Shown here: in pieces, positions 22,626-62,175 of the stretch | Layout of the letters: every line of letters begins with the position of its first letter | Numbering within the stretch: position 1 is the first letter of the stretch | IMG/VR virus record: IMGVR_UViG_3300043252_000011 | Location: 34,429 to 98,428 of that record | Origin: a virus | Taxonomy: Duplodnaviria; Caudoviricetes | Length of the DNA: 64,000 nt | Strand: one strand, 5' to 3' | Notes under the pieces: generated by a model | Told to the model about the DNA's origin: nothing | Seen by the model: only the letters and a program-made list of their open reading frames with translations | The model's database searches: none | Position numbers and translations under genes: made by a program

Positions 22626-23025
22626 CATGCTTATCCGGTTGCCACACACAAACGCTTGAGAGGTACTAGATGTTGATCGAACGCCGAGGCTTGTTGACCG
22701 GGATCGTCGCAACTCTTTGCGCGCCTTCAATTGTGCGCGCGGGATCATTGATGCGGATCGCTGGCGAGCGGTATCGAATTTGGGGGTTTTCGTGTCCTTT
22801 GCTGCCGCCAGCGGAGGCGGCCTACAACAATCCGGCTTTATGGGACAAATATCTCGGGCCAACTCGCCGCCTTCAATTCGGAACATGGACGTTTTTCGGC
22901 AAAACCGGGAACGTCTATACCGACGACGTGATTGACTTTGCGAAGCAGGAATATCCGGATGCGCTCCCGTGGCCTGCGCATCAGGCACAAGATGTAGGGC
23001 TGTGTGTCTAAACCGGATAAGCATG
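22626..23025 (+). mobile_element. Non-autonomous TIR cassette 1 (IS1595/ISSod11-like ends), 400 bp
   Basis: TIR catgcttatccggtt; 8-bp TSD tgctatat (22618-25 and 23026-33). Confidence 0.88.
22670..23011 (+). CDS. Cassette 1 cargo with twin-arginine-like N-terminus
   Basis: MLIERRGLLTGIVATLCAPSIVRA; start and stop lie in the element ends. Confidence 0.65.
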   Translation: MLIERRGLLTGIVATLCAPSIVRAGSLMRIAGERYRIWGFSCPLLPPAEAAYNNPALWDKYLGPTRRLQFGTWTFFGKTGNVYTDDVIDFAKQEYPDALPWPAHQAQDVGLCV

Positions 23026-23093
23026 TGCTATATTATGGCCGTGGGCTCAAAAGATTGCGCTGGAAGCACTCGACTAACAAGAGATATGTCGAA

Positions 23094-23901
23094 ATGGGCG
23101 ATCATCGCTTTGAATTAAAGGCTGAATTTTCCATGCACGGGCATGAGAAGAAAATAAATTGGAATCTAAATTGGAGCGATAGTATCCCCGAGCGCTTGGC
23201 GGAATGGGTTGAACAACAGTATCAAGAAGCCATGAATTTCTGGTACGAAGCCGAATGGACCGCCGAAGATCATCGTAACGCCGAAATAGAGAGAACCGAA
23301 CGGGCAGAGTTGGATCGCCTTAAAGCCAAATACGAACCGCCACACTAAACAAGAGTTAGCATGGTCATGAGCCAATATCTTTCGCTTTACGATGCCCAGA
23401 CTGAAATCCTGCAGTGGCTTGAATCGAAAGGCCACGCGGTTGATTATGGTTCTGGCAAACCTCTCGATGATTGGCGGGTATGGCAGATGTGCAAAAGAAA
23501 GCGGCGGTTTCAGATGCGTCCAGAGGAAGATGAGCGTCGCCGCGTGTACGCCTGTCCGCATTGCGAGGGCTGGCATTTTACCCGGCGCCGATAGTAGACA
23601 AGTTAACACGCAGGAGCTTGGAATGAGCAATACTGACGGACAGCGCGATATCACCTTGGCGATGGAAGCAGAACTCGCGACAGTGTCTAAGACCACCGTG
23701 GCAGCAGCAGCCAAAGCGGCGGAAGATCAAGACATCGCCTATGTGATGACGCAGCAGATCAACTGCATCATCGATGCCAATGTGCGGCTTCGCGGCTCGC
23801 ACCGCCTCGTCGGCGCCGATGTCCAGGCGTGGGTCAACATGGTGGATTATCTGACGCGGGAAAAGGAAGGACTTACCGCAAAGCGCCAGCGGCAGAACTA
23901 A
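23094..23901 (+). CDS. Three small hypothetical genes (23094-23348, 23361-23594, 23623-23901)
   Basis: ORFs separated by palindromic sites; the middle one has YACPHCEGWH. Confidence 0.55.
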
Positions 23902-24502
23902 TCAGCTTTCTTATCAAGCCGCGCCTCGATCTCGCCAGTTGTCGGTCGGGTCTGTTCAAGCGTCTTAACCCGATCTTCGAGCCGGGTTGTCTCCCGCTGG
24001 TAATCACCTTTCAACTCATTCAATCGTTCTTTGGTGTTTTTGGCAAATTCCTCATGCTCGCGGATCGACAGACTCTTGCCGAGCATTTGGGAGGCAAGAG
24101 TGATTGCAGAGAGGATGACCGCGCCAAGTGCAATGTAGGTGGGGTCCATCAGCCATGCGGCAATTCAATCCGCCTCAACCGCTGCTCGTGGTCTTTCGTA
24201 ATGTCTTTCAGGTCGGAATCAATCTGTGTCTCGGTCTTGATATGATCGTCGAGCTTGGTCGTCAGCACATTCAAATTGGTTATGGCCTGTTGCTGGGCAT
24301 CGTTGATCTTGCTGATGGCGGTCCACTGCAATTGAATGCCGGTTTCGGATTTGGTTTTAACATCGACAAGCGTGCCCCAGGCCAAATAGATCGCGGCCGT
24401 GCCGGCGGCGCCGATGAGCGTGATGAGGATTCGGAATACCCAAGCGGTTGCCCGTTCCTTGGTCTCGACGAATTCCTGTAGCGTCATGCCGATCCTGCTC
24501 AT
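23898..24502 (-). CDS. Two TM/coiled-coil lysis-region proteins (23898-24149, 24149-24502)
   Basis: N-terminal TM plus coiled coil, downstream of endolysin. Confidence 0.55.
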
Positions 24503-24568
24503 TTCGCGCCCGCCAATACTAACGTCTTCGAAGTTTCGTGCTACTCATCCACAAGTCCCGGTACGAAA

Positions 24569-24599
24569 GTATGGGGCCGCATTGGCGCGCGCCCCATAC
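24569..24599 (-). terminator. Hairpin terminator after the porin-like gene
   Basis: gtatgggg...ccccatac stem followed by TTT on the minus strand. Confidence 0.45.
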
Positions 24600-24626
24600 C
24601 GACTGACTGACGCTACTCCCTCGACG

Positions 24627-25424
24627 TTACAGGCCGAATTCGTAACTCAACCGCGTCCAATACTGCGTGCCGAGGTTGGCGCCCGCACTGAGTGTGAGCG
24701 GAGCGCCGTTTGTCGCGAAGGCGTTACCCATGGTGAAACCCTTGACCGGGAATGCAACGCCGGCAGAAGCATCGATCGCGCCGCCGTTCGGCTTGCCATC
24801 GGTGCCGAGCGTAGGCCAAATGAAGCCGCCAGTAATCATCGGGTAAGCGCCAACGGTCGTGCCGTTCGCGTTACCGAAGCTGCCACTGATTCCGGCTTCT
24901 TTGAGGCCAACGCCGACGTATTGCCGTGGTGCTCCGACAGGAACGGTCGGGGGAATCGGCGTGAAGGTCGGAAAGTTCGTCACCGGCAACGTCGGGAGGG
25001 CCGCATAAATCTTTTGCAGCCATTCAAAGCCGATGTCGAATTCCTGCGTCGCGGCCCATCGACTTGCGATTGCTGCGCTGGCTGCGCTTGTCGTGGCAGT
25101 TGCCTGCACCGTATTGGTGCCAGTGATATTCGACCATTCGCCGGTCAATTTGCCTCTGCACCATCCGATAGCGCAGTGGCCGACATAACCGACTTCGCCG
25201 CCGACCGCGCCACCCGTCGCCGTGAGATTGCCGCTTGCGAGACTCGTGGCAAAGACATTGGTGCCGCTGACACTCGACTGCGCGACATCAGCCTCGGTGA
25301 GGATACCGACAAACCAGCTGGAACCGGCCGCGGTAGCTGCCGGTGCCTTCAATGGCAAGTCTGCCGCCAGAGCCGGTACTGCCAGCGCGGTAAGCGCCAT
25401 GGTAAGCAGTAGCAATTTGCGCAT
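24627..25424 (-). CDS. Outer-membrane porin-like (Omp25/RopB-type) moron
   Basis: Signal peptide, ADLPLKAP start, C-terminal TRLSYEFGL. Confidence 0.65.
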   Translation of the reverse strand: MRKLLLLTMALTALAVPALAADLPLKAPAATAAGSSWFVGILTEADVAQSSVSGTNVFATSLASGNLTATGGAVGGEVGYVGHCAIGWCRGKLTGEWSNITGTNTVQATATTSAASAAIASRWAATQEFDIGFEWLQKIYAALPTLPVTNFPTFTPIPPTVPVGAPRQYVGVGLKEAGISGSFGNANGTTVGAYPMITGGFIWPTLGTDGKPNGGAIDASAGVAFPVKGFTMGNAFATNGAPLTLSAGANLGTQYWTRLSYEFGL

Positions 25425-25497
25425 GGAAACCTCCTGTTGAGTTACGTGGTCAACCATACGCTTTTAGTTGTGTCTTTGGTGCAACACAGTTTGGAAA

Positions 25498-25725
25498 TCA
25501 GCGACCGATCGCGCCTCCCGGCTGCGTGCCAGGGGAGTTTGCTGGAGCGCCAATGACCTTGCCGGTGCGATTGTTTACTACACTCCACACTGCGGCGCCC
25601 ACCGCAACTATGGCGGCGGTAATGTCACCGACATCGCTCTGGGTAATCCATCCCTTTGCGACCGCATAGGCGAGAGCCGGCGGAATGATAGCACGCAGAA
25701 TTCCAGTGATTTGATCGTAGTTCAT
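25498..25725 (-). CDS. Putative holin
   Basis: 75 aa, two TM segments, next to endolysin. Confidence 0.6.
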   Translation of the reverse strand: MNYDQITGILRAIIPPALAYAVAKGWITQSDVGDITAAIVAVGAAVWSVVNNRTGKVIGAPANSPGTQPGGAIGR

Positions 25726-25726
25726 G

Positions 25727-25966
25727 TCACTTCCCCTGATTGACTGGTTTGAAGTTTACGATGCCACCCCACCAAAAATGACAACACAGAAAGCCGGTCA
25801 AAAACCCGGCAATCCATGGAAATGGCGGAAACGCGGCCGTGATGTTCCAGACAAAACGCGACAGCGTGGATGTTCCGTCATAGAGCGAATAGCCTTCCAT
25901 CACCGAGAAGCTGATGACGATCAGCAATAGCCACACCGCCCATTTGATGCTGCCTTTCATCATCAT
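25727..25966 (-). CDS. Small membrane protein (lysis module)
   Basis: Hydrophobic 79 aa. Confidence 0.5.
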   Translation of the reverse strand: MMMKGSIKWAVWLLLIVISFSVMEGYSLYDGTSTLSRFVWNITAAFPPFPWIAGFLTGFLCCHFWWGGIVNFKPVNQGK

Positions 25967-26544
25967 ACCGTCTCCCTCGTGAAGGTTACTGTCGGATCAA
26001 GTTTTGCAATCATCCACAAAAGCGGCGCACAGCCAGGTTGCGGGTCCATGACGGTCGATGACCAGACATGATCGCGAATCCATTTGCCGGGTTGCTGAAT
26101 GTTCGTGCAGCCCCAAATGTACGACGATGGATGGCCCCACGCTTCCGAGCCGACGCCATTGAACAGCAGCATATAGTAGAGCTGCTTCTCGAGCCGCCAA
26201 TCGCTGATGCTGCCCCAGCCCTCGACATTGATAGCATCCACACCACCGTCAATGAAAGCATTTGGGCCAATGAAAGGACCGCGCCCCACGGGCACTTCCG
26301 TGGTTCTGAGCGTCAGCGTTTGGCCGTTGCCTAAATAGGTTTTGAAATTCGCATCGCTCTCGCGGCGATGAATGCAAGCGAGCATTTGCCATGGCACACG
26401 GGTCTTGGATTCGAGTACCTGATATGTGACTTTGTTGTTGATCGCAAACTGCGCCTCCTCCGTGAATGCCTGCACGCGGCCGGCATTGATGGTCATTGCG
26501 TCCCACCATTTCGCATAGCGCGGCCAGATGTCGGAGTAGCGCAT
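25963..26544 (-). CDS. Endolysin (lysozyme-family)
   Basis: IHRRES..F.TYLGNG..VPVGRGPF..FNG.G..PSSYIW motif. Confidence 0.8.
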   Translation of the reverse strand: MRYSDIWPRYAKWWDAMTINAGRVQAFTEEAQFAINNKVTYQVLESKTRVPWQMLACIHRRESDANFKTYLGNGQTLTLRTTEVPVGRGPFIGPNAFIDGGVDAINVEGWGSISDWRLEKQLYYMLLFNGVGSEAWGHPSSYIWGCTNIQQPGKWIRDHVWSSTVMDPQPGCAPLLWMIAKLDPTVTFTRETV

Positions 26545-29084
26545 TAGTTGATCCCATAAACGAGAATTGAGCCGGACGTGATATTGCCGCTGTCCATAAG
26601 AACCTGGAAGCCATCAACGACGCCTGCGGTGTTCCAGTAGCCCGACATTTGCCCGGTAAAAGGAGGCGCGGAGCCCGACACATAATTCGCAAATCCACCG
26701 ATCATGCAAATTGCATTGGCGGACGGATTAGTAATCGTGATCCAACCGCTCATACCGGGAGCCGAGTTGGCCAGTGAAAATCCATTTGCATCGAGCGGGT
26801 AACTTAATGGAATATAGCCTGTCGGGCCGACAGAACTCCCGCTTGATGAATTGATCCAACCGCCAAAGCTGCTGAGATAACCGCTCGATTTGTAAGCACC
26901 GCCGGAATGGATTTGCAGTTCTAGGATTTTTTCATTCGTTGCCGGAACGATGGCCTGAAATACCAGCAGATAGGACGTGTAGGTATTGTTGATCGGGCAA
27001 GTGCCGGATGTCGGCGAGGCATTGTTGATCGATGTCGAATTGCTCGCGGTGATCGTGCATAGGTAGGTCATCGCGCCGGTGCCGTTGGCACTCGCCCACG
27101 TTCCATCACCGCGCCAGAAGGTTCCTGCGCTGGCGCTGGTGCCGGAATTGAGATTGCTGACCGGAAGATTGCCGGTGACGCCGGTGCTGAGCGGCAAGCC
27201 GGTGGCATTTGTCAAGACTGCCGCGGATGGCGTGCCAAGCGCCGGCGTCGTCAATGTCGGCGACCCGCTGAAAACAAGCGAACCCGATCCGGTTGTGCTT
27301 TCCGCCGCCGCTGCGCGGAAGATGCGCCATGCCGCGCCGTCGTAGCCGATGAGCAAATCGAGTGCGCCGCCGCCGCCGGTAACCGTCGTATTCGGCAGCT
27401 TGCACGCGCCATCCCCGCAATTCGCCGCGAGGCCGTCGATGATGTGGGAGATTTGGCCGGCGGTCGGGGAGGCGGGGAGGCCGGCGTAGGTGTGGGCGGT
27501 GATGATCGGATCAGTGATCGTCGGCGCTTGCTTGCCAACAAGAATGCCGGTGCCGCTTATACCTTCGCCGTCGCTGTCTTGATAGCCAAGAGAAAAATTA
27601 CATCCGCCGCTTCCCGGAAATATGCTGGCGCACGCCGTGGCGTTCGGCAAATTAAGAAAGCCGGGGCCTTGACCGTTGAATTGCGAGCCGGTGCCTGTAC
27701 CTGAAACGATCCATCCCGTGACATCAACGCTGGAATCAACCGCCTGTGCAAAGTTGCCCGACCAAGAGACCGAACTGCCGATTGTTGTAGTGCCGCCTGC
27801 CGCTAGATTGGCTCCGGCACTCAGGTTCCAATGATTGATGAAAGTAGTATTAGATAAAAGCGTTTCATTGGTGGCATTGACCGTAACGCCTTTGCCGGTT
27901 GCGGAAACATGGGAGCCTGAATTTCCCCAAGCGCCCCAGACGATTCCGCCATAATCGCAGATGGCTATCTGTCGGCATTGAATGCCTGGCCCGGCGCCAT
28001 TGACAGCAGTGATCTCCAAATTGTTGACGCCGGCTTGGCCGCCGTCTTGGAGCAAAATACCCGTCGCGCCGCTTGGCACTTGGAGCACGACGTTCGACGG
28101 CGTGATAGAATTACCGTTGATCGAGAGAAGCTGGCCTGAGCTGCCGCCGCTATTTCCTTGATATGTGCACAGCGCGCCAGCAGTCGCGGTTGCGTAAGAA
28201 CCACCCGACCCGTCGAGAAGCTGAATCGGTCCCGCCGCTCCTAAGAATGTCGCAATCTGTTTTACAAACGAACACGCCGTCGCCAGCGTGCAGGCATTCC
28301 CCGAACTGAGACAATTGCCGCTGCCGGTTGCGCTCGGCGCGGCGTAGAGCGGGAGACCGCCGACGGGCGCAACTGCGCCCCACACCGCAACGTCTTTTAG
28401 GAGCGATCCGGTGGAGTTATTCCAAATTGCTACATCGCCGATTGTGGATGAGGACGGCCCGACGATATTGCCAGTCCCAGGCCCGGCAGGAAGGCATGTT
28501 GGCGTCAATCCATTCGCACCGAGATTAAGAAACGCCCCAGCACAAGCACTCGGCTGCGGCAGTGGTCCCATCGTGTTGCCGGGTTGCGAAAACAGCCCGC
28601 GCCCGGTCAGGTCGTTGGTCTTGTCCCAAAGCTCACGCTCGACCGTGGTGGTTTCGGTCATGCGCTGGTTGAGATCGCGCGCCGCAACGCCGCGGCCTTC
28701 AGTGAATTGCGTCAACTGCCGCGGCCGTTCGGCGCCGACGATCTGCACTGTGCCGGTCTGGACCGCGTTGAACGTCAGCACCGCATTGGTGATCGGCCGC
28801 GGGATGGTCGACAGCGGGCCGGTGGTTGAAGACAGCGACCAGCCGAAATTTGGGTCGGTCGAGAGATAGCGGACGCCGTTCACCCAAACTTGCAGCCACG
28901 CATCGATGTCCGACCCACTGGCAAACAACGCCATATTCACAGCACAACTACAATTATTAGCGCTCAAACTATATGACGTTCGTCGCTCAGCATCAGGTAG
29001 CGCCGGCACAGCAGGAGGCGCCTGAGCAGCAGCAATACGCAGGCTCAACAACAGAAGTAAAATGATTGCCATTGCTCGGCGCAT
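26544..29084 (-). CDS. Tail fibre/spike protein
   Basis: ~846 aa, Gly/Ser/Thr-rich, FWRGDGTW, follows internal virion genes; signal-peptide-like N-terminus. Confidence 0.75.
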
Positions 29085-29085
29085 T

Positions 29086-29697: not shown

Positions 29698-29748
29698 GGT
29701 CCCGTGCTATCTCCCGGTCCATAAGGCTGCGGCAGCGGCGCAGGCCCA

Positions 29749-33135: not shown

Positions 33136-35288
33136 GGCACCGTTCCAATGCGGCCATCCGGCAACCGGATGCGTGTGCCGGGTTGATAAGCTTTCATGGC
33201 CTGGTCCGGCGTCATGTCGGCCGGGATTTGCACGTATCCCGCCGCCGTTCCCGGCACCGCCGTATCGTGTAATTTATCTCGCAGCGATTTGTTGTACTTG
33301 GCCATATTATCCGGTTTGCCAAAAAACATCGGCGAGCGCGGATCGTAAATCTCGCTGGGGTCTTTGCCGGCAGCGCGCAGCGCATCCTCTTGCCGCATCG
33401 CATCTTTTTCGGCGAGATAGAATTGCATTTGGCCGGTTGCCGATGGCACGCCGGTCAATTCGATGCTCGGATCGATGGACGTGGCGTAGCGCTTGAAAAA
33501 CTCGCGGCGATTGTCGAGCAGCGTCTCGCCTTTCGGTGTCATCGTCTCGGTCAGTGTCTTTTCCAGGAATTGCTCGTCGACCCGGCGCAGTTTTGGTTGT
33601 GAGCCATCCGAAGGCGCGTAGGCATCGCGGATCGGTCCCATGTCGCTGATCTTGCGCGGGTCGCCTTCCGGCAGATGAATGCGATGAAACAGATCGGCGG
33701 TCGCTGCATCCGACACATGCGCGGCCGGCTCGTCAGCACCTTCGCGATTGAGCCACGCCAGCATTCGCATCTTGGATTCCGGCGAGATATTCGGATTGGT
33801 CTTTATATCGTAATCGGTGATGGTCGGCTGTCCGCTGGCGCTGTCCTTGATGACCGCGTTTTCGAATGTGTTGTCCGTCGCCTTCTGTTGCTGGGTCGCG
33901 ATATTGGTCGCGCGAGTTTGCGCTTCCTGATAATCCTTGATCGCTTTCACGCCGGCGTCGTAATTCATGATCCGCTGGCGCGGCGGCACCGATTGATCGT
34001 CACGCATTCTCTGCGCCACGGCCAAGGCTTGCGAGAGATTCTGACCGGGTGTCGGAGCGCCGAGATTTTGGATTTCAGCAACCGACGGCATGTTACCGCT
34101 GGCCCAATCCTGGATTGAGCGGCCGGTGATCGACTTCACATAATTACGGGTTTCGGCCGGTAGAGCGTTGGGATTGCCACCGGACGCCATCCATGCCGCG
34201 ACATGGCCTTCGCCCCAATTGTACGCCGCTAGCGCCAGCCCGGTATTGCCGCCGAACTTCTGTTCCAGATCGGCCATGTAATGTGCAGCACCTTCGATGG
34301 ACGATGCCGGATCGCGCGGATTGACGCCGTAGCGCGCGGCTGTCTCGGGCATGAATTGCGCAATGCCGGTTGCACCTTTCGGGCTTTCCGCCGCTGGATT
34401 GAACCCGGATTCCTGATTGAGCTGGCGCGCGAATAGGATCGGATTGAGCTTGTATTTCTGCGCTGCCGCGTCCGTCATGCCTTGGTATGGCGATTGGCCT
34501 TTGAGAACCTGATTGACCTGATAGGTCGCACCGGCGGCGCTAATCTTCTCGTTCAATTCGCGCGTTTTCAGATCGGCGACTTCCGGTGCTTCCGCAAGCA
34601 CCGGATTATTCACCCGTTCGTACATCAGTTGATGGATTTCAGCGGCGAGTGCCTTGGCCTGTGCCGTCCCCGCGCCACCGGTCGAGATCAGATCGGTCAA
34701 ATCCTGCGTCTTGGATTCGATGGCCGCCTGCGTGCCTTTGTCGAAACTTTCCCTGATCCGCGTCTGTTGTTCGTTGAGCAGCGCGCGATAAGTGAACGTG
34801 GTCGAGGAATCGATGGCGCGGCCGACTGCATTGGCAACTTCCGGCCCGGCAACATCGTTGTAATTCTGGACCGTTTTCTCCTTGTAGGCGTTTGCGGCCT
34901 GCTGATAACCGTTCGGGTCGTTCTGAAATTTCTGTCGCAGCGCAATATCGTCACGCTTGACTTGGCCCTCGCCTTCGGCAAGCGCCGAGACTTTTGCCGC
35001 TCGCGCGAACGCCACGCCCGCCTGCCCTACAAACGGCTCGTATTGCATCTGCAGACTGCCGTCCGGTCCTCGTGTGACGGCTTGCGCGCCGGCGCGTTCG
35101 GCCAACGGGACGGCAACCTGTTCCAAGCCCTCGCCAATCTTGTCAAGACCCCGGCCCAATTCCTGATATGGCTGCGCGACCTCGCCCGCGCTGATCCGCG
35201 AAACCGGCGCCTCGCTGGTCTCGACGGGCGCCACGCCAGGCTCGATCCCGGTCTGCGTCTGCTTAAGGAATGGCAGGACTTCGGCCAT
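33108..35288 (-). CDS. Internal virion protein with lytic transglycosylase (SLT) domain
   Basis: QESGFNP..SPKGATGIAQFMPETA..ALAAYNWG..ETRNYV. Confidence 0.85.
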   Translation of the reverse strand: MAEVLPFLKQTQTGIEPGVAPVETSEAPVSRISAGEVAQPYQELGRGLDKIGEGLEQVAVPLAERAGAQAVTRGPDGSLQMQYEPFVGQAGVAFARAAKVSALAEGEGQVKRDDIALRQKFQNDPNGYQQAANAYKEKTVQNYNDVAGPEVANAVGRAIDSSTTFTYRALLNEQQTRIRESFDKGTQAAIESKTQDLTDLISTGGAGTAQAKALAAEIHQLMYERVNNPVLAEAPEVADLKTRELNEKISAAGATYQVNQVLKGQSPYQGMTDAAAQKYKLNPILFARQLNQESGFNPAAESPKGATGIAQFMPETAARYGVNPRDPASSIEGAAHYMADLEQKFGGNTGLALAAYNWGEGHVAAWMASGGNPNALPAETRNYVKSITGRSIQDWASGNMPSVAEIQNLGAPTPGQNLSQALAVAQRMRDDQSVPPRQRIMNYDAGVKAIKDYQEAQTRATNIATQQQKATDNTFENAVIKDSASGQPTITDYDIKTNPNISPESKMRMLAWLNREGADEPAAHVSDAATADLFHRIHLPEGDPRKISDMGPIRDAYAPSDGSQPKLRRVDEQFLEKTLTETMTPKGETLLDNRREFFKRYATSIDPSIELTGVPSATGQMQFYLAEKDAMRQEDALRAAGKDPSEIYDPRSPMFFGKPDNMAKYNKSLRDKLHDTAVPGTAAGYVQIPADMTPDQAMKAYQPGTRIRLPDGRIGTVPWPNLPISQ

Positions 35289-39220: not shown

Positions 39221-39265
39221 GTTGCACCGTGTTGCGGCCTATGCCTTGGCGCAACGCACGCCCGC

Positions 39266-40731: not shown

Positions 40732-40740
40732 GAGCGGCCT

Positions 40741-52842: not shown

Positions 52843-52858
52843 CATTTCACGTGAAACA
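52843..52858. promoter_or_regulatory. parS: parS-like palindrome (14/16)
   Basis: catttcacgtgaaaca versus consensus TGTTTCACGTGAAACA. Confidence 0.65.
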
Positions 52859-52931
52859 TTAGGGAATTATATACTTGACTCCATTTCCGATTTGGGCTAG
52901 TTTTCGGGCATGAATTGAGGGAAAAACGGCC

Positions 52932-53861
52932 ATGTCCAAGTCCACCATTTCGACGTTTGAACTGTTCGCCCTGATCCCCGATGCGGAGACGGCGCGGACC
53001 TATTTGGAGGCCCGCCTGTGGCCGAACGGGGCAACCTGCCCGGTCTGCGGCCTTGGCGAGCGGGTGACGGTTCGGAAGGGCAAGCCCGGCTTCTACCACT
53101 GCCAACAGTGCGCAGAGGACTTTACGGTGCGCACCGGCACGATATTCGAGCGCAGCCATGTCCCGCTGCACAAGTGGGTTTACGCGATGTACCTGCTCGT
53201 AACGGCCCGCAAGGGCATATCCAGCCTGCAACTCGCCAAGGAAATCGGCGTCACCCAAAAGTCGGCTTGGTTCATGTTGCAGCGGCTCCGCGAAGCCTGC
53301 GGAAAAGACCTGACTATGCTTCAAGGGCTGGTCGAGGTTGATGAAACCTACGTGGGCGGCTTGGAGGCCAACAAGCACGAAGCCGACAAACTGCGCATGG
53401 GGCGCGGCCCGGTCGGCAAGCAGCCCGTTTTGGGCTTGCGGGAAAAGGGCAAAGGTGGTCGCGTCAAGGCGTTCAAGATCGACAGTACCGACGCGGGCAC
53501 GATCACCGATGTCATCGTTCAAAACGTGGCGGTCGGATCGACCCTGCACACTGACGAAGCCCAAGCCTACGGCGAGATCGGCGGCCTGTTCTTCGATCAT
53601 GCGACGGTCAACCACTCGGCTGGCGAATACGTCAAGGACGGCGTTTCGACCAATTCGATTGAGTCCGTTTTCGCGGTTTTGAAGCGCGGCCTGATCGGCG
53701 TCTACCATCACGCCAGCCCCAAGCATATCGGCCGCTACGTTGACGAATTTGCGTTCCGGTTGAACGAGGGCAACGTGGCCCGGCACACCCTGGAACGGCT
53801 GGACTCGTTCGTCAGTCGCGTTGCGGGCAAGCGGCTCACCTATAAGGCGCTGATCGCATGA
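52932..53861 (+). CDS. tnp: IS1595-family (ISXO2-like) DDE transposase
   Basis: CPVC Zn ribbon, VEVDETYVGG, LHTDE, TNSIES, YVDEFAFRLN. Confidence 0.95.
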   Translation: MSKSTISTFELFALIPDAETARTYLEARLWPNGATCPVCGLGERVTVRKGKPGFYHCQQCAEDFTVRTGTIFERSHVPLHKWVYAMYLLVTARKGISSLQLAKEIGVTQKSAWFMLQRLREACGKDLTMLQGLVEVDETYVGGLEANKHEADKLRMGRGPVGKQPVLGLREKGKGGRVKAFKIDSTDAGTITDVIVQNVAVGSTLHTDEAQAYGEIGGLFFDHATVNHSAGEYVKDGVSTNSIESVFAVLKRGLIGVYHHASPKHIGRYVDEFAFRLNEGNVARHTLERLDSFVSRVAGKRLTYKALIA

Positions 53862-53989
53862 GCGCGCCAGCGAAGCCCCCAGCGGCGTTAGACGCGATTG
53901 CGGACAAGGTTCTCCGCTACCGTCCCAAGCCCAAAACGAAACCAGCGAAAAGGCGCAAACGCCGTGCCCGCCTATTACAACGAGATTGA
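53858..53989 (+). CDS. Small basic ORF after the transposase
   Basis: Hand-translated 43 aa: MSAPAKPPAALDAIADKVLRYRPKPK... Confidence 0.5.
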   Translation: MSAPAKPPAALDAIADKVLRYRPKPKTKPAKRRKRRARLLQRD

Positions 53990-54836
53990 CCCCCATGCCG
54001 CACAGTGGCTCCGCAATCTTATCTCCGCTGGTCACATTGCAGCGGGGGACGTTGACGAGCGATCTATCGTTGACGTGCGGCCCGACGACCTTGGCGGATA
54101 CGAGCAAGCCCATTTCTTCGCCGGTATCGGCGGATGGTCCTACGCCTTGCGGCTCGCCGGATGGCCCGATGATCGATCGATCTGGACCGGCTCCTGTCCG
54201 TGTCAGCCGCTTTCGAGCGCGGGACAACGCAAGGGCCATGCCGACGAACGACACCTCTGGCCCGCTTTTTACCGCCTCATCGCCGAGTGCGCGCCTGCAA
54301 TCGTCTTTGGAGAACAGGTTGCGAGCAAGGATGGACGTGAATGGCTCGCCGGAGTTCGCGCTGACTTGGAAGCATTGGGATTTACCTGCGGGGCCGCCGA
54401 TCTGTGCGCTGCGGGCGTCGGCGCGCCCCATATCCGTCAACGGCTCTATTGGGGTGCCGACGCCGGTAGTACCGAACGGTGGTCGCCGGCCGAAGGGCGG
54501 GGCGATGTCGCTCAAAGGCCAGACGCCAGACGGCAAAAAACGACAGGTCGATCTGGATTTCTTTGTCCGCCGAGCCTTGGCACACCCGACGCCGATGCAC
54601 GGCGCACAGAACGAGGCGGCGCACAATGCGATGTCGGGCCAGTGGAAAACGGCCATTGGTCGGATGTCGAATGGGTCGCGGCTGGCGACGAAGGGCAGTT
54701 CCGCATTAAACCCGGCATATCCTTGCTGGCTCATGGGATTCCCGGACGTGTGGGACGGATTCGCGGGTACGGCAACGCGATTGTCCCGCAAGTCGCGTCC
54801 GAGTTCGTGAGCGCCTTCATGGAAAGTCGCCCTTGA
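53964..54836 (+). CDS. C5 cytosine methyltransferase (IS passenger, alpha frame)
   Basis: FFAGIGG, GSCPCQP, EQV, RIRGYGNAIVPQ. Confidence 0.85.
   Translation: MPAYYNEIDPHAAQWLRNLISAGHIAAGDVDERSIVDVRPDDLGGYEQAHFFAGIGGWSYALRLAGWPDDRSIWTGSCPCQPLSSAGQRKGHADERHLWPAFYRLIAECAPAIVFGEQVASKDGREWLAGVRADLEALGFTCGAADLCAAGVGAPHIRQRLYWGADAGSTERWSPAEGRGDVAQRPDARRQKTTGRSGFLCPPSLGTPDADARRTERGGAQCDVGPVENGHWSDVEWVAAGDEGQFRIKPGISLLAHGIPGRVGRIRGYGNAIVPQVASEFVSAFMESRP
53986..54810 (+). CDS. Overlapping alternative-frame MTase beta subunit
   Basis: LNPAYPCWLMGFP motif; homologous to 15969-16835. Confidence 0.55.
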   Translation: MTPMPHSGSAILSPLVTLQRGTLTSDLSLTCGPTTLADTSKPISSPVSADGPTPCGSPDGPMIDRSGPAPVRVSRFRARDNARAMPTNDTSGPLFTASSPSARLQSSLENRLRARMDVNGSPEFALTWKHWDLPAGPPICALRASARPISVNGSIGVPTPVVPNGGRRPKGGAMSLKGQTPDGKKRQVDLDFFVRRALAHPTPMHGAQNEAAHNAMSGQWKTAIGRMSNGSRLATKGSSALNPAYPCWLMGFPDVWDGFAGTATRLSRKSRPSS

Positions 54837-54956
54837 AATGAGCGAATGGACTCATGTATATAATTCCCAAACATTATAAGCCAGTCACAACTGCTCCACC
54901 CCGCCAAGTGATTGTAGCAGAAAATCTGTGTGCGGCAATTAGGAGCCGACGCAAAC

Positions 54957-55710: not shown

Positions 55711-55995
55711 GGGAATTATATACTTGAGTCCCGAGGCGCCCAAATAGGAGGCAACAGTGAGCGAGCGAACGGTTTACCGGCACAAAAGGCGAGGCGCCAT
55801 CTACGAGGTCTTGCATGACAACGCATGCTTGGAGTGTTCCGCCGCGCCAGAGTTCGAAAAGATGTTCGATGAGGATCATTTCGTCGTTTATCGGAGCATT
55901 CACAGCGCGGCTGTCTACGTTCGGCCCTACCCGGAGTTTCACGATGGCCGTTTCGAAGCGATCCCCGATCCCAGGGACTCAAGTATATAATTCCC
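55711..55995 (+). mobile_element. Non-autonomous ISNwi-like cassette (MIC), 285 bp
   Basis: Perfect 22-bp TIR gggaattatatacttgagtccc; TSD caaattat. Confidence 0.92.
55757..55990 (+). CDS. DUF1653-like cargo protein
   Basis: YRHKRRGAIYEV...VVYRS...YVRP..EF.DGRF; stop lies inside the TIR. Confidence 0.7.
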   Translation: MSERTVYRHKRRGAIYEVLHDNACLECSAAPEFEKMFDEDHFVVYRSIHSAAVYVRPYPEFHDGRFEAIPDPRDSSI

Positions 55996-56385
55996 CAAAT
56001 TATGGTGCGCCCATGCCTAGACCCTGACGCGCGTCGTGTTGCGTTATCGTTGTTGGCGCGGGGTCTCGGCAGTCCTGGCGAGATTGCCGACTTGGCCGGC
56101 GTATCGCGGCAGGTTGTTGAGGGTTGGGCGCTGATTGCCGATATGGATTGGCGCCAGATCAAGCGCGCGAGATTGGCAAAGGCGTGGCGCAAGGAATGGG
56201 ATCGTGTCCGGCCGTAATTGGGCAAGAGCGCGCAAGTTGGCAGATGCTGAAAAGCCGCAAGAGGCTTGCGACATCGGCCTATTCAGCGATGACATGGATC
56301 AGGTCGAAATGTTCATGGAGCCCACAAACGACATGCCGTGACGCGGCTATGCCGCTTCCTTTGGCGGCACTGCGCCGGAACGGCA

Positions 56386-56859
56386 TCAGGCCGGCGAGAC
56401 GCCAATCTCGCCGGCCGCTTTACGTCTTGCTTTGCCGCTGGCAAGCCCGGCTTTCCGAGCATGTGTTCTCTTCCTTTTCACCAAATCCCAGCGCTTTTTA
56501 GCACCATTTCGGCCTATTTTCTGCATGTATCGACGGCTGAACTCGATTTTGATAGCGCCGCTATGCCGAACCTGGGAATTGTTGCGGCCGGCAAGCCGTG
56601 CTTCAACCGATGCGAATGCTTCCTCGCTGTGCTGCAGCACGCCTTCGACGCCTAAGCCGCCGAGATACCAGAGCAGCGATTTCATCCCCACGCGCCGTTG
56701 GCCGCGCGATGAGAATATCTTGGCGGAATATCCCTTCGGCGCGCCGGTGAGCTCGTCCAGCGCCTCAAACGAGATATTGCGCCGCTCCCGCCATGTATTG
56801 AGCGCCGCGCGCAGCCCGGCATAATCGTGCCAGGCGATCGGATCGGCATCGGCCGTCAA
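56386..56859 (-). CDS. HTH-like hypothetical protein
   Basis: RERRNISFEALDELTG..GYSAK. Confidence 0.5.
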   Translation of the reverse strand: MTADADPIAWHDYAGLRAALNTWRERRNISFEALDELTGAPKGYSAKIFSSRGQRRVGMKSLLWYLGGLGVEGVLQHSEEAFASVEARLAGRNNSQVRHSGAIKIEFSRRYMQKIGRNGAKKRWDLVKRKRTHARKAGLASGKARRKAAGEIGVSPA

Positions 56860-57182
56860 TGGAAATACCGCCGCGGCGGCGGATCGAACGTATCGTCACC
56901 GCGGCTCGAGAACACGCACGCCAGCCCGATTCCGCCCCAGACTGCGACCGCAAAGCCGACGATGTAATAAACCGCGCTCAATGCACTGTCTCCGATTTGA
57001 GCACATACCACGGGCTATAGCGAAAAACCTCGCGGGCCGCCTCGCGAATGCGCCGGTCCGGCTCGTGGCCGAACACGTAGCGCAGATATTTGAAGCACGC
57101 CGCCTCGTAGCGCGATTGGATGGTCTTGGGGCCAAGTGAGGACGATTTGCTGCCGTAGCTCATTGCCGCCTCTCTAATGTTT

Positions 57183-57572
57183 CATGCTTATCCGGTTTAG
57201 ACACACAGCCCTACATCTTGTGGTTATGTTTCGACGTTTGCACGCGGTTCATTAAATAATCTGCATGGATCATCTGGCCATTCCATGCGATCATGTAGGT
57301 TGCCGTGGCGGAAAGACTCATAGTCTTCCTCGCCAGAGCCTATAGAGCGGCGCAACATTTCCGTACATCGCAGGCAAACCACGGTCTTGAGATTACGAGT
57401 TATGGCCAGATGACCACACGCTAGCTCTACGATGCGTCGGGTCTGGTCTTTGCCGAGACGATCCCGATTAAAGCCAGTCGCTATAATGTCGGTTCGCACA
57501 ATTCGTTCGGGTGGTGTTTGGATCAACATCTAGTAGGTCTCAGCGTTTGTGTGTGGCAACCGGATAAGCATG
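57183..57572 (-). mobile_element. Non-autonomous TIR cassette 2 (ISSod11-like ends), 390 bp
   Basis: Same ends as cassette 1, inverted; TSD taatgttt (57175-82 and 57573-80). Confidence 0.88.
57224..57529 (-). CDS. Cassette 2 cargo, hypothetical (LACGH..CLRC)
   Basis: 101-aa ORF filling the element. Confidence 0.65.
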   Translation of the reverse strand: MLIQTPPERIVRTDIIATGFNRDRLGKDQTRRIVELACGHLAITRNLKTVVCLRCTEMLRRSIGSGEEDYESFRHGNLHDRMEWPDDPCRLFNEPRANVET

Positions 57573-57575
57573 TAA

Positions 57576-57591
57576 TGTTTCACGTGAAACA
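57576..57591. promoter_or_regulatory. parS: Perfect parS palindrome
   Basis: tgtttcacgtgaaaca, 16/16 consensus. Confidence 0.8.
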
Positions 57592-57592
57592 C

Positions 57593-58096
57593 TCACGGCA
57601 CCCAACCCTTCGCCCTCACAATCTCATCGAGGGAGGCAGATGGCGCAAGCGTTTTTTCTTGCTTTCTCGCTGGACCAGCGACCGTAGTTCTAGGCTCAGA
57701 CTCTAAGGAAGATTCTATAGGTGATTGTGATTGTGTGTGCATTTGCCGAGCAATTGCCGGGTACGCACCCGTGAATTTTCTGTTTGTTCGTTCCGCACCC
57801 TTGAAGCCAGCAACGGCGCGCTTAGTGCTGATATCATTGGCCTTTTTTAATTCTTCCTCGATGCGTTTATGCTTCCATCCAGGCTGAAACATTCCGGCAA
57901 TTGCCGAGCAATTGCTGCGCCACTGGTCACGGTTTAATCGCGAAATCCCGGCAATTGCCGCTTCGCTGTCCGGCAGCTTCCCGTGCTGCCAATAGTGCAT
58001 GATAAGCAAAAGGTAGGCGCCGTGCTGAGCTGCCGTCAAATGCTGGGTGTCGGCCAGGTAATCGCCAATATAGAGCGGCATCCAAGCGCGGCTCAT
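57593..58096 (-). CDS. YdaU/DUF1376 putative replication protein
   Basis: WMPLYIGDYLADTQHLT..HGAYLLLIMHYW. Confidence 0.85.
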   Translation of the reverse strand: MSRAWMPLYIGDYLADTQHLTAAQHGAYLLLIMHYWQHGKLPDSEAAIAGISRLNRDQWRSNCSAIAGMFQPGWKHKRIEEELKKANDISTKRAVAGFKGAERTNRKFTGAYPAIARQMHTQSQSPIESSLESEPRTTVAGPARKQEKTLAPSASLDEIVRAKGWVP

Positions 58097-58530
58097 TCGG
58101 CGGCCTTGTTCGATGCAATCCACTCCGCCTCGATTTCCCGCCACAAGGCACGATAATCACGTGTCGCCTGTTGCCGGATCGGGCCATTTTCGCCGTTGAT
58201 CTTGAGCCATCCTAGCTGTTGCAGCCGAAACCGCTTGGCCGGATCGATCGCATTGAGGATTTCGAGCTCGCGCGAGGGGGACCAGCGCCAGTCGGTCATG
58301 TCGCGGTTGCTCTTGCCGAGATTGCAGCGTCGACAAAGTACCTGAAGATTCGACCAGGCTAGCGAAAGCCGCGGAAAATGCGACCGCGGCTTGATATGGT
58401 CAACCTGTAGGGGATTATCCGCATCGCCGCGGAAGCCGCAGCATTGGCAATAGCCATTGGCAAGCTTCAACGCCTTGTAGCGAGCCTTGAGCCATTCCGG
58501 GCTGTCGTAGAACGGATCGCGGCGCTCCAT
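58093..58530 (-). CDS. HNH endonuclease
   Basis: CQCCG..LQVDHIKP..NLQVLCRRCNLGK. Confidence 0.85.
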   Translation of the reverse strand: MERRDPFYDSPEWLKARYKALKLANGYCQCCGFRGDADNPLQVDHIKPRSHFPRLSLAWSNLQVLCRRCNLGKSNRDMTDWRWSPSRELEILNAIDPAKRFRLQQLGWLKINGENGPIRQQATRDYRALWREIEAEWIASNKAAE

Positions 58531-59036
58531 TACGACTCCCCGCGCGCTCGATATGCCATCTGGCAATGAAACCGGCAATACGGCACTGCATCATCTTTTG
58601 CTGCACCGCAATACAGCATGTCGCGGCCGGGCTCGCCGAGCGGCCATCGGCATGTGGTCGAGGTCAGCCCAAAAATATCCACCGCGCTCGCTGGCGTAGG
58701 GATGGCCGGTAGATCGGTTAGGCCGGGAGGCTGTGAGACGCCCAGCGCATGAAAGGCCATTCCCTGACCTTCCTGGCGCGATTGGCGGGGCTTCCTAGGG
58801 GTATTGAGCGTAATCCGCACATTGCCGATGCCATGCCGCAATTGCCGGGTTTTCCTTTTCACGATGACCCGTTTCGGCAACCCAAGCCTGATGATCTTGG
58901 CGACGACCGCGTTGCGGGTAATGCCGTCGCCGAGCTCGCGGGCTATCTCGCCGCCCGACATGCCGTCGCTGTGGCATTGCCGCAACACTTGCACGCGGGT
59001 CTCGGTCCAGAATGTGCCGGCGCCGGCGGGCATCAT
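58530..59036 (-). CDS. gcrA: GcrA-family regulator homolog
   Basis: WTETRV..L..IARELG.GITRNAVVAK..RLGL; CRWPLG..YCG..PYC..H. Confidence 0.9.
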   Translation of the reverse strand: MMPAGAGTFWTETRVQVLRQCHSDGMSGGEIARELGDGITRNAVVAKIIRLGLPKRVIVKRKTRQLRHGIGNVRITLNTPRKPRQSRQEGQGMAFHALGVSQPPGLTDLPAIPTPASAVDIFGLTSTTCRWPLGEPGRDMLYCGAAKDDAVPYCRFHCQMAYRARGES

Positions 59037-59248
59037 TCCGCCGCCTGTTGTCGTTGTCGGTGGGCAAATTCAAAGGCCATGTCGGCCAGCACCCGCTCGA
59101 TCAGCTTAGGTGCCGACCCCTTCTTGGGCGGCCCATGGTTTTCCCAATCGGTGTAAGTCGATCGGTCGACGCCAAATCTTCGGGCAAACACATCCTGGGT
59201 TTCGGCCATACGGCGCCTTGCGCGCCAAAGAGTGGTTGCTGTGACCAT
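59033..59248 (-). CDS. Cro/XRE-like HTH regulator, probably leaderless
   Basis: TQDVFARRFGVDRSTYTDWE; -10 element ends just 6 nt upstream of the ATG. Confidence 0.7.
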   Translation of the reverse strand: MVTATTLWRARRRMAETQDVFARRFGVDRSTYTDWENHGPPKKGSAPKLIERVLADMAFEFAHRQRQQAAE

Positions 59249-59254
59249 GGTGGC

Positions 59255-59283
59255 AGCATAAATATTTTTTGGTGCGAAGTCAA
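59255..59283 (-). promoter_or_regulatory. sigma70-type promoter TTGACT-17-TATGCT
   Basis: In the divergent intergenic region before the HTH gene. Confidence 0.55.
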
Positions 59284-59608
59284 CATTGGCGCTTGCATTA
59301 TTTTGCGGATGTGGGAATATCACAAAATGAGCCACGAGAGCGACGGTAGTCCGATCTTGGCCATCATCATGCCTGCGCTGTGGGCGCTGGCGATCGGGAT
59401 TATCGCTTGGAGGCAATGGCATGGCCGGTAGCCTGCGCGACCAGCTTTGCGCCGCTCACACGCTGGCATGGCAGCAGCAGCGCCACGAGGACGAGATCGC
59501 TTTGCTCCGCGCTATCGCCAAGATCGACGGCAAGCCGCTGCGGCACCATCGTGATACGCGCGACGATTTTCAAAAGGATTACGACGAGGAACAAGAAGGG
59601 ACCTACCG

Positions 59609-60478
59609 ATGAACGTGCCAGCCATCAAAACCGCAACCGCGGTTGCCTCCCACCCATTCAGTGCCGACCAGATCGACCTTATCAAGCGCACCATCTGTAA
59701 AGGCTCGACCGACGACGAACTCCGGCTATTCCTATATCAGGCCGGCCGCACCGGGCTCGATCCGCTCGCTCGACAAATCTATTCGATCGAGCGGCGTGAA
59801 TACCGCGACGGCCAATGGGTCAAGGCGCGATCAATACAGACATCGATCGATGGTTTCCGCCTGATCGCCGAACGCAGTGGCAAGTACGCCGGCCAGGTCG
59901 GCCCGTATTGGTGCGGCGCCGACGGCCAATGGCAAGACGTATGGATCGCGCCGGAATCGCCGATCGCCGCCCGGGTTGGGGTGCTGCGCACCGATTTCAA
60001 GGAACCATGCTGGGGCGTGGCGCGCTTCGATGCCTACGCGCAAAAGACCAAGGACGGCGTTCCGACGCGCATGTGGAAAACCATGGGCGACGTTATGGTG
60101 GCGAAGTGCGCCGAAGCACTGGCGCTGCGCAAGGCATTTCCGCAAGAACTATCCGGTCTCTACACCGGCGATGAAATGATGCAGGCGGTCGAGGATTTCA
60201 CACCGCCAGCGCCGAAGAAAACAATCGCCGAAGATTTGAACGATGAAATTCCGTTCGGTGGCGACACGCCGAAGGCCGCTCCTGCTCAAAGCCCCCCCAG
60301 CCCTCAGGCAGGAGCGGCCAGTGCGCCCGTCGATGTGCTGGCGATGGCGCGTGAGGCCGCAAGCCACGGCTTCGATATGCTGAACACCTACTACAAAACG
60401 CTCGGCAAGAAGGATCAGAAAATTCTCAACGAGCATAAAGTTGAACTCGAAGCGCTGTTTCCGATCGATGCGGAATAG
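59609..60478 (+). CDS. bet: Phage recombination protein Bet/RecT
   Basis: GLDPLARQIY, IQTSIDGFRLIA, KCAEALALRKAFP. Confidence 0.9.
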   Translation: MNVPAIKTATAVASHPFSADQIDLIKRTICKGSTDDELRLFLYQAGRTGLDPLARQIYSIERREYRDGQWVKARSIQTSIDGFRLIAERSGKYAGQVGPYWCGADGQWQDVWIAPESPIAARVGVLRTDFKEPCWGVARFDAYAQKTKDGVPTRMWKTMGDVMVAKCAEALALRKAFPQELSGLYTGDEMMQAVEDFTPPAPKKTIAEDLNDEIPFGGDTPKAAPAQSPPSPQAGAASAPVDVLAMAREAASHGFDMLNTYYKTLGKKDQKILNEHKVELEALFPIDAE

Positions 60479-60506
60479 CCGCTCACGACAGGTTAGTGGG
60501 AAAACC

Positions 60507-61244
60507 ATGGCAGAAATATCGGGAATTTCTTGGACAGACGCTACGTTCAATCCGTGGATTGGATGCACGCGCGTAAGCCCCGCGTGTGATCGTTGCTATG
60601 CGGCCCGTGACAATGAACGCTGGAATTGGGTGCCCGGCTGGGGCGCAGGCGTCGCTAGGCGCCGCACGTCGGTCCAGAACTGGAACAAGGTGCTCAAATG
60701 GAATCGCGAAGCAGCGGCTTCGGGAAGGCCGCTACGGGTGTTCTGTGCGTCGCTCGCCGACGTGTTTGATAACGAGATCGAGCAGGCGTGGCGCAACGAC
60801 CTGTGGGACTTGCTTCGCGCTACGCCAAATCTGCGGTGGATACTTCTGACCAAGCGGATAGGCAACGCGCCGAAGATGCTACCCGCGTTCTGGCCCATGG
60901 CGCACGTCGGCTTGATGTCCACCCTCGAAAATCAAGAGGTATGGGACCGGGATTATCACAAGCTCGAAGCCGTGCCGGCGGCTTGGCATGGGGTGTCCGC
61001 CGAACCGTTGCTCAGCCATATCGATATCGGCGACGCTAAGCCGGATTGGATCATCACGGGCGGTGAAAGCGGCCCCGGCTTCCGGCCCCTCGATATGGAT
61101 GCCGTGCGCTCGCTTCGCGATCAATGCCGACGCAACGGCATCACTTTCCACCACAAGCAAAACGGCGGTATTCGCGGGAAGGATGCCGGCTGTTTGGTCG
61201 ATGGTGTCGAGCATAAATATTTTCCGCCAGCGTTGGCGGCTTAG
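60507..61244 (+). CDS. Phage Gp37/Gp68 (DUF5131) family protein
   Basis: ISWTDATFNPWIGCTRVSPACDRCYA, LLTKR, SAEPLL, GGESG. Confidence 0.9.
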   Translation: MAEISGISWTDATFNPWIGCTRVSPACDRCYAARDNERWNWVPGWGAGVARRRTSVQNWNKVLKWNREAAASGRPLRVFCASLADVFDNEIEQAWRNDLWDLLRATPNLRWILLTKRIGNAPKMLPAFWPMAHVGLMSTLENQEVWDRDYHKLEAVPAAWHGVSAEPLLSHIDIGDAKPDWIITGGESGPGFRPLDMDAVRSLRDQCRRNGITFHHKQNGGIRGKDAGCLVDGVEHKYFPPALAA

Positions 61245-61289
61245 GCACTATCAACAAGTATGTCGCCAACTTAGAGGTAGGAGAACACC

Positions 61290-61712
61290 GTGAACAAGCG
61301 CAGACTTCTGAGGTTGGCCGATCTGCTCGACGCAGACGCCAAGAACGAGGCGGGTGTCAAATTTAATCTGAGCGGGTGGGGTAGTTCGTCTACAGGCGCC
61401 CCGGCTAATGTTTCCTGCGGCACCACGGCATGTGCGATGGGGCTGGCGGTACTAAGTGGCGCGTTCGAACAAGACGGCCTCAGAAACGGATTTGGGCCGC
61501 GCTCATGCTCGGTCATTCCTTATTTTCAAACAGGGCAGAAAGTTGTGTCAGGCTTCAAGGCCGCGGCGAATCTGTTTGGCATTAGCCACAAGGCAGCCGA
61601 ATGGCTCTTTCAAGATGACCACTACCGCAAAAGCCAATGGACTGGTGCCGCAGGCGAACGCGCCGTGGCCCGCCGTATTCGCAAGTTCGTTGCTGGCGAA
61701 GCGCGACCGTAA
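61290..61712 (+). CDS. Conserved hypothetical phage protein
   Basis: RLLRLADLL...CGTTACAMG...VARRIRKF. Confidence 0.7.
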   Translation: MNKRRLLRLADLLDADAKNEAGVKFNLSGWGSSSTGAPANVSCGTTACAMGLAVLSGAFEQDGLRNGFGPRSCSVIPYFQTGQKVVSGFKAAANLFGISHKAAEWLFQDDHYRKSQWTGAAGERAVARRIRKFVAGEARP

Positions 61713-61731
61713 GACGGCGGCTGATACGGAA

Positions 61732-62175
61732 CATGCTTATCCGGTTGCCACACACAAACGCTGAGACCTACTAGATGTTGAAAACCCTCGTTTGGCCTGA
61801 GAAAAGCTATCAGTCGCTCGACCAAGGCATCCGATTTGCAGTGCGCGTTCTTCACGCGGCCGGGTTTGAAACCTGCCAGTCATGCCAGGGCGGTAAAGGG
61901 CACGCCTACAGCGACCCTACGGTTGATCTGAGAGCGGAAGCTGACGACGCCCGTGGTTTTGGAGCGCTCGCGGCGCTGCGAACCTACGGGCTTCCCATCG
62001 CGGAGGTAGCCATCGTTTGGCCTGTGCGGAACGGCTGCCCCTACGAGAAACTTTGGCGCATCACATTCAGCAAAACAATGGAAGATCGCGCCGATGAGAA
62101 GCCGAGTTTTGTTTTCGGGTATGCCGCAACATGACCGCAAGATATGGGGCTGTGTGTCTAAACCGGATAAGCATG
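61732..62175 (+). mobile_element. Non-autonomous TIR cassette 3 (ISSod11-like ends), 444 bp, no TSD
   Basis: Same ends as cassettes 1 and 2; flanks atacggaa and gttagcag differ. Confidence 0.85.
61775..62134 (+). CDS. Cassette 3 cargo, hypothetical (LDQGI..ETCQSCQGG)
   Basis: 119-aa ORF filling the element. Confidence 0.65.
   Translation: MLKTLVWPEKSYQSLDQGIRFAVRVLHAAGFETCQSCQGGKGHAYSDPTVDLRAEADDARGFGALAALRTYGLPIAEVAIVWPVRNGCPYEKLWRITFSKTMEDRADEKPSFVFGYAAT

Follow-up and report, generated by a model that had tools for sequence, protein, structure and literature searches.

Transposable elements are usually thought to be rare in phage genomes and, to our knowledge, the acquisition and exchange of small accessory and counter-defence genes by phages is largely unexplained. 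In integrons, cassettes are mobilized by recombination that is specific for the sites attC and attI and creates no target duplication. The mycobacteriophage elements MPME1 and MPME2, attributed to Sampson and colleagues in 2009, are said to be about 440 bp long, to have inverted repeats and a single small open reading frame (ORF) and to move between phage genomes; the ORF is reportedly the same in all of them, with no recognised parent transposase. Mobile insertion cassettes (MICs), such as MIC231, an IS231 derivative of the Bacillus cereus group (De Palmenaer et al., 2004, via PMC3129680), and passenger-carrying elements of the IS1595 family, the so-called ‘transporter IS’ (Siguier, Gagnevin and Chandler, 2009, via PMC3129680 and PMC7986276), are among the systems closest to the one described here. 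We analysed a 64,000-nucleotide stretch of phage DNA (hereafter the window; positions 34,429 to 98,428 of the 98,428-bp IMG/VR record IMGVR_UViG_3300043252_000011), in which three short elements with common ends each enclose a different gene. Like the MICs outlined in PMC3129680, these elements are modular, transposase-less units with the inverted repeats of an insertion sequence and unrelated passengers, and are thought to be moved in trans. In our assessment, they are very probably non-autonomous derivatives of the IS1595 family, that is, MICs carried by a phage.

The three elements had been proposed from a reading of the letters alone (hereafter the original prediction), and we confirmed them on the sequence at the predicted positions and on the predicted strands. 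Cassette 1 (22626-23025, + strand, 400 bp) has its left end at 22626-22676 and its right end at 22986-23025; cassette 2 (57183-57572, - strand, 390 bp) has them at 57523-57572 and 57183-57222, and cassette 3 (61732-62175, + strand, 444 bp) at 61732-61781 and 62135-62175. The 15-bp terminal inverted repeat CATGCTTATCCGGTT closes both ends of every element. Its six exact matches in the window form three inward-facing pairs, and no further exact match exists in the rest of the record; with up to three mismatches allowed, nine matches were found against 1.7 expected, a number that none of 100 shuffles reached. The predicted common ends proved to be 50 bp on the left (51 bp in cassette 1, with a 1-nucleotide insertion), with ATGTTGA as the last bases, and 40-41 bp on the right. 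We refer to this pair of ends as the shell. The ORFs also have the predicted lengths and the predicted start, as each begins at the ATG of the left end and stops at or inside the right end: P0001 in cassette 1 (22670-23011, 113 amino acids, the last residues and the stop codon lying within the right end), P0002 in cassette 2 (57224-57529, 101 amino acids), and P0003 in cassette 3 (61775-62134, 119 amino acids). As foreseen, two of the three elements are flanked by 8-bp target-site duplications, both perfect (TGCTATAT at 22618-22625 and 23026-23033 for cassette 1; TAATGTTT, given for the + strand, at 57573-57580 and 57175-57182 for cassette 2), and a search of all three found no transposase. 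Excision of cassette 1 in silico restores a 58-amino-acid ORF; the insertion thus hit the 3' portion of a small gene and removed roughly its last 15 codons. Cassettes 2 and 3 are located in short intergenic spacers.

The three elements belong to a large family. A scan of viral contigs with the 15-mer returned at least 118 stretches; almost every match carried the extended end consensus, and most were paired at distances of 170-2,250 bp with perfect 8-bp duplications. A narrower 22-base pattern was found in 108 stretches of the viral collection (2.9 million contigs) and in 25 stretches of prokaryote genomes (one each for 185,579 species; 32 million contigs). The latter came mostly from Hyphomicrobiales and Acidobacteria assemblies, and at least one of them (Rhodoplanes elegans) adjoins a tail-fibre-like gene. 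The family was not found in 50,697 GenBank phage records, where cassette 2 had no DNA match and only two remote transposase hits were obtained. Our catalogue comprises 114 non-redundant copies, and the addition of transposase-bearing copies gives 139 distinct target sites; the subfamily of the window consists of 44 non-redundant copies of 293-927 bp. The original prediction regarded three copies in one phage as unusual, which they are not, as several carrier contigs hold three to five. The 8-bp duplications, which flank nearly every copy, are perfect at the 139 sites and variable in sequence; the duplicated octamer has a GC content of 35%, against 54% in the flanks, with a preference for T two bases before it (-2) and A two bases after it (+2). 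The same shell and cargo were also found at different sites with different duplications (L027/L153; L095/L124/L079; and L133/L142, on one contig). Insertion of the elements took place through DDE transposition, with AT-rich sequences of 8 bp as targets.

The family assignment rests on longer siblings. Elements of 1.5-2.6 kb with identical 15-bp termini encode proteins of 343-412 amino acids with DDE_Tnp_IS1595 (PF12762, E 1e-32 to 1e-35) and Zn_ribbon_IS1595 (PF12760, E 1e-11 to 1e-13) domains, so that the ends are of the IS1595 type, as had been suggested. A profile built from nine sibling transposases detected at least 101 transposase loci in viral contigs, and in all but three of the 63 loci with paired ends, passenger DNA of 370-1,575 bp separates the left end from the transposase. 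In these siblings, the passenger lies beside the left end and the transposase toward the right end, with the transposase stop codon at the inner border of the right end. Among named insertion sequences, the closest relative is ISAcr1 of Acidiphilium cryptum, whose transposase, named ‘IS1595-like element ISAcr1 family transposase’ in RefSeq, shares 64% amino-acid identity with those of the siblings. The ends of ISAcr1 align with the ends of the shell, with homologous termini, a subterminal CTAGAT motif and an 8-bp duplication, although ISAcr1 differs in being a simple 1,080-bp plasmid-borne insertion sequence with no passenger. The phage termini CATGCTTATC and the ISAcr1 termini CTTGCCTATC both fit nnnGcnTATC, which we take to be the consensus of the ISSod11 group; membership in that group is presumptive. 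From the IS1595 transposases in elements with the same termini, the 8-bp duplications and the likeness to ISAcr1, we conclude that the three elements are IS1595-family MICs. They combine insertion-sequence ends with the lack of a transposase and a passenger unrelated to transposition; of the hallmarks of IS1595, the 8-bp duplication and the likeness to a named member apply to the family, and the DDE transposase with its zinc ribbon is found in the siblings only. Internal deletion of the transposase is a classic route to non-autonomous derivatives, and some short copies (L063, L119 and L044) keep fused N- and C-terminal transposase remnants; no such remnants were found in the copies of the window-type subfamily. 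A miniature inverted-repeat transposable element, i.e., a short non-coding derivative, was considered and rejected because a conserved protein-coding gene fills each element.

Shell and cargo have separate histories. Across the 44 subfamily copies, conservation is 70-99% through position 50 of the left end and over the last 41 nucleotides, and collapses between them. Homologous cassettes at different sites are 86-98% identical in their ends and 66-86% in their cargo; the ends are conserved better than the cargo. BLASTP clustering divided approximately 100 cargo ORFs into about 75 unrelated families, which substantiates the proposal that one pair of ends carries unrelated genes. P0001, P0002, and P0003 are singletons in this clustering, and BLASTP found no match among the three or between them and the transposases, so that they are not the diverged homologs or transposase fragments which the original prediction had named as its possible refutation. 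For P0003, at least 245 homologues were found, most of them viral and with 29 columns invariant, and its structural model has a predicted local distance difference test (pLDDT) score of 95.6; P0002 has 34 homologues, conserved CGH and CxxC motifs and a model pLDDT of 91; P0001 has about ten distant homologues (40-51% identity) and an N-terminus resembling a twin-arginine translocation (Tat) signal. All three cargos are real protein families. None of them has a match in Pfam and PHROGs, and Foldseek searches of the PDB with P0003 and P0002 gave nothing at E 0.001 or better; a wide structure search (VIA) with P0003 reached a top Z of 5.7, to generic alpha/beta domains, and its Atlas relatives are viral hypothetical-protein clusters only. 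The recognisable genes among 84 examined cargos are mostly concerned with DNA and nucleotide modification, and include Mom, NADAR, PAPS-reductase-like and MazG-like proteins and DNA methyltransferases, of which six kinds are listed (N6/N4, C5, Dam, D12, and MT-A70 among them); Fic and a TnpB are found as well. In essence, a large family of shells carries dozens of unrelated accessory genes from one uncultured soil phage to another. Two copies are of separate interest. One of them (L057:1253-2408), which is 1,156 bp long, shares the termini and is flanked by an 8-bp duplication, has as its sole cargo a TnpB (OrfB_IS605 and a Cas12f1-like TNB domain), i.e., an RNA-guided nuclease carried in an IS1595 shell. 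Within a 1,983-bp element, L013:1267-2187 encodes a 307-amino-acid protein in which an HNH endonuclease and a helix-turn-helix, next to the IS1595 zinc ribbon, replace the DDE domain.

The junction between shell and cargo lies at a fixed place. Conservation in the subfamily of the window stops exactly after ATGTTGA, and the predicted in-frame start at the left-end ATG is used by 27 of the 44 subfamily cargos, the third codon always beginning with the A of this motif. Homologous cargos may be joined differently, as in L069, which begins at the shell ATG, and L071, which begins at its own start. Shell-free homologues of P0003 (L273-L278) start with GTG followed by the codon that is third in the shell copy, and free homologues of P0002 and P0001 start with Met-Lys, Met-Asp or Met-Glu where the shell copies have Met-Leu. 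The backbones of the contigs L026 and L266 are 99% identical, and the two contigs are distinguished by an indel of 1,238 bp that starts immediately behind ATGTTGA. In L266, a relative of P0003, a truncated right end and a methyltransferase come after the shell, and then a 76-amino-acid gene with its own ATG; in L026, the same 76-amino-acid gene comes directly after the shell, its own ATG replaced by the ATG-TTG of the shell. The two arrangements have only three bases, TGA, in common at the junction. Together with the differing joins, this indel is indicative that cargo turns over inside a fixed shell and that fusions to the shell ATG arise through short-homology events. Two groups of contigs show further arrangements of the same genes. 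In phage contigs from peat soil (L265-L272; e.g., L266:1865-4859), several cassettes stand side by side, with a decayed shell and a composite unit in which a single left end and a single right end enclose two or three genes; such contigs resemble a hotspot of accessory genes that was assembled from these elements. In soil contigs (L273-L278; e.g., L274:690-1100), every small gene is bounded by the motif ATAAGCAGGAG, and a free copy of the cassette 3 cargo, 92% identical, lies there between different neighbours. It could represent another route by which the same genes are shuffled.

The ends also bear on how the cargo could be expressed. The consensus left end contains one stop codon per frame (TGA at 31-33, TAG at 41-43, and TGA at 48-50), the ATG (44-46) comes directly after the TAG, and a purine-rich stretch lies 7-12 nucleotides upstream of it. 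In cassette 1, the truncated upstream ORF stops on exactly this TAG. The right end has stop codons 41, 28, and 14 nucleotides from its tip. Scans of the ends found no promoter-like or terminator-like sites, and an Rfam scan of the window returned no RNA family. We also considered that the left end might hold a sigma-70 promoter, but rejected this: with the only -35-like hexamer, transcripts would begin downstream of the ATG, and no such promoter was detected in the scan. The three cassettes are co-oriented with their neighbours, as are 68 of 84 flanks in the subfamily according to a classifier based on the GC content of third codon positions, which is about 83% accurate. Read-through transcription and coupled translation would be the simplest reading of cargo expression from such sequences.

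The explanation that we consider much the best combines these observations as follows. The left end of about 50 bp and the right end of 41 bp would be all that the transposase needs, with one passenger gene held between them. The transposase would be supplied in trans by a sibling located either in the host or in another phage infecting the same cell, as the window phage has none with matching ends. Having no promoter or terminator of their own, the cassettes would depend on transcripts that run on into them from adjacent phage genes of the same orientation. The left end would close the three incoming frames within 20 nucleotides, and the purine-rich ribosome-binding stretch and the ATG directly after the TAG would allow coupled or re-initiated translation of the cargo. 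The cargo would be replaced through short-homology deletions or through recombination, with the inner edges of the ends as anchors, repeatedly yielding genes with the Met-Leu start of the shell and a stop codon from the right end. The cargos would be phage accessory genes, probably often counter-defence genes. We hold this account, from IS1595-derived MICs and a transposase in trans to turnover by short homology, to be highly probable as a whole.

Several points weigh against it, and some of them give room to a reading in which the cassettes are stranded relics that came through an ancestor or phage recombination, are immobile now and are kept for their cargo only. No target duplication was found for cassette 3; an uninterrupted look-alike of its insertion site exists at 18018-18050, and recombination, not transposition, may have brought this cassette in. 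In L265-L272, a closely related cargo lies in a decayed shell, with the left tip and the right end truncated. No cognate transposase with matching ends is present in the 98-kb record, and the sole IS1595-family transposase of the window phage has different ends and is only 26-29% identical to those of the siblings. The search for an autonomous parent, which the original prediction had proposed, yielded transposase-bearing siblings with the same termini, but no transposase-bearing copy with window-type inner ends among the 44 subfamily and 63 autonomous copies. Mobilization in trans would then depend on the outer bases, 23 of 25 of which are identical between window-type ends and the siblings on the same contigs, and we infer the transposition, transcription and translation of the cassettes from their sequence. 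The original prediction would have been refuted if neither other copies nor empty sites existed; other copies are many, but matching the joined flanks of every catalogued element against all retrieved loci and the remainder of the record yielded no clean empty site. A single match spans a junction in this comparison, and it lacks 45 bp, target included. Genes related to the one that flanks cassette 2 reach 55% identity at most and could not be aligned at the DNA level. Lastly, about 60 of the 84 cargos have no Pfam match, and the counter-defence reading thus draws on a minority. That the cassettes are stranded is nevertheless doubtful, though not far-fetched: none of the six termini deviates within its 15 bp and both duplications are perfect, which points to recent insertion or continuing selection on the ends, and a transposase-bearing sibling is also present on at least nine contigs with the window subfamily. 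These siblings, and the recurrence of one shell and cargo at different sites, lend indirect support to mobilization in trans.

The start and stop codons of the shell could, in turn, be incidental, if the inner ends were kept for transposase binding and the ORFs came to abut them after the loss of dispensable DNA. A near-copy of the left-end ATG motif CTAGATGTTG recurs inverted in many right ends, and the conservation of this motif may be owed first to transposase binding, with the ATG exploited secondarily. ATGTTGA, which the original prediction had suspected to be the start of the parent transposase, has this role in no transposase-bearing copy seen, and the transposase of ISAcr1, which has the CTAGAT motif, starts 12 nucleotides beyond the motif that gives the ATG in the shell of the window. 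Moreover, 17 of the 44 subfamily cargos have their own ribosome-binding site and ATG 15-50 nucleotides further in, and in some left ends the ATG is mutated to ATA or directly followed by TAG. Random abutment, however, would lead to in-frame use of the ATG in one-third of the copies at most, fewer than were seen; no other start codon precedes the conserved cores of cargos such as L069, P0003 and the methyltransferases, and the ATG of the 76-amino-acid gene in L026 was replaced exactly by that of the shell. We find incidental codons rather unlikely, and this reading and a built-in start are not mutually exclusive. More tentatively, yet as a possibility that we take seriously, the shell could be an expression-ready cassette platform of soil phages which, with incoming frames stopped, a built-in ATG and a stop codon in the right end, would be a transposon-based analogue of the integron. 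If so, almost any small gene trimmed to its second codon would become a mobile, translationally coupled module, and phages would shuffle counter-defence and DNA-modification genes in this way. True integron-like cassettes, with the repeats as sites of a site-specific recombinase, would account for single promoter-less genes bounded by imperfect inverted repeats and for the clustering of several units in accessory regions, but are very improbable: the different sites, each with an 8-bp duplication of variable sequence, contradict fixed-site recombination, the siblings encode a DDE transposase and not an integrase, and the cassettes are scattered over both genome strands. We give even less credence to the idea that the ORFs are chance frames in GC-rich DNA or decayed transposase within non-coding miniature transposons. 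Several elements do have antisense open frames of like length, and P0001 has few relatives; yet the homologues and confident models of P0003 and P0002, the invariant columns of P0003, the distant homologues of P0001 and the lack of transposase similarity in the subfamily elements all argue against it.

As far as we know, the published passenger-carrying IS1595 elements are bacterial and not phage-borne. According to PMC3129680 and PMC7986276, both MICs with passengers and passenger-carrying IS1595 elements are established concepts, as the original prediction had it. In the account of MIC231 given there, the parent family is IS4 and not IS1595; the phage cassettes differ from it also in occurring almost only in uncultured phage genomes, in a far more diverse cargo (about 75 families sampled) and in that the inner edges of their ends often supply the start and stop codons of the cargo. 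The phage cassettes resemble the ‘transporter IS’ in transposase family, 8-bp duplication and a passenger inside the ends, and the autonomous siblings, with left end, passenger, transposase and right end, are exactly of this type, whereas the window elements have lost the transposase completely. Unlike the MPMEs, the phage cassettes have an ORF that differs from copy to copy and a clear parent family. They share with integron cassettes the promoter-less single-gene unit, transcription from outside and a very wide gene pool, but move by DDE transposition into many sites. In the literature on IS1595, phage cargo and MICs, we found no description of the phage-borne family, the breadth of its cargo or the built-in start and stop, and the family is apparently undescribed so far. 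It represents a cut-and-paste transposon cut down to about 90 bp of ends, by which at least 75 genes are carried between uncultured phages of soil and peat, with the recurrent design that the ends give the translation start and stop. The cargos provide a list of candidate anti-restriction and anti-defence genes, in which Mom, NADAR, methyltransferases, PAPS-reductase-like proteins and MazG are the known members, and the junctions provide a model of gene capture through microhomology at a fixed place. Possibly, the shell could also serve as a compact natural cassette for moving and expressing genes.

The same phage contains other elements of interest. An autonomous IS1595-family element of a different lineage (52862-54868, 2,007 bp) has ends that begin with GGGAATTATATAC and are unrelated to those of the three cassettes, and an 8-bp duplication, AAACATTA. 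It encodes the distant 309-amino-acid transposase mentioned above (52932-53861) and, after it, a C5 DNA methyltransferase as passenger (53898-54836). The ends of this element also bound a transposase-less cassette of 285 bp (55711-55995) with the 8-bp duplication CAAATTAT and an ORF of 77 amino acids (55757-55990) that has its own ribosome-binding site; it represents another cassette lineage of this phage, independent of the first. The window contains only two parS-like palindromes TGTTTCACGTGAAACA (52843-52861 and 57573-57591, one with two mismatches), and each has an IS1595-type element next to it. Both elements, whose ends are unrelated, went into one and the same octamer, AAACATTA, which overlaps an arm of the palindrome. 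The duplication of cassette 2 overlaps the perfect parS-like palindrome at 57576-57591. A shared target preference may explain both insertions, as the octamer fits the target consensus of the family. Finally, a direct repeat of 134 bp, 98% identical, occurs at 17642-17775 and 63867-64000, 46,225 bp apart and reaching the end of the record, which suggests that the 98-kb record consists of two phages joined by the assembler and that the cassettes belong to a 46-kb phage at approximately 17649-63874.

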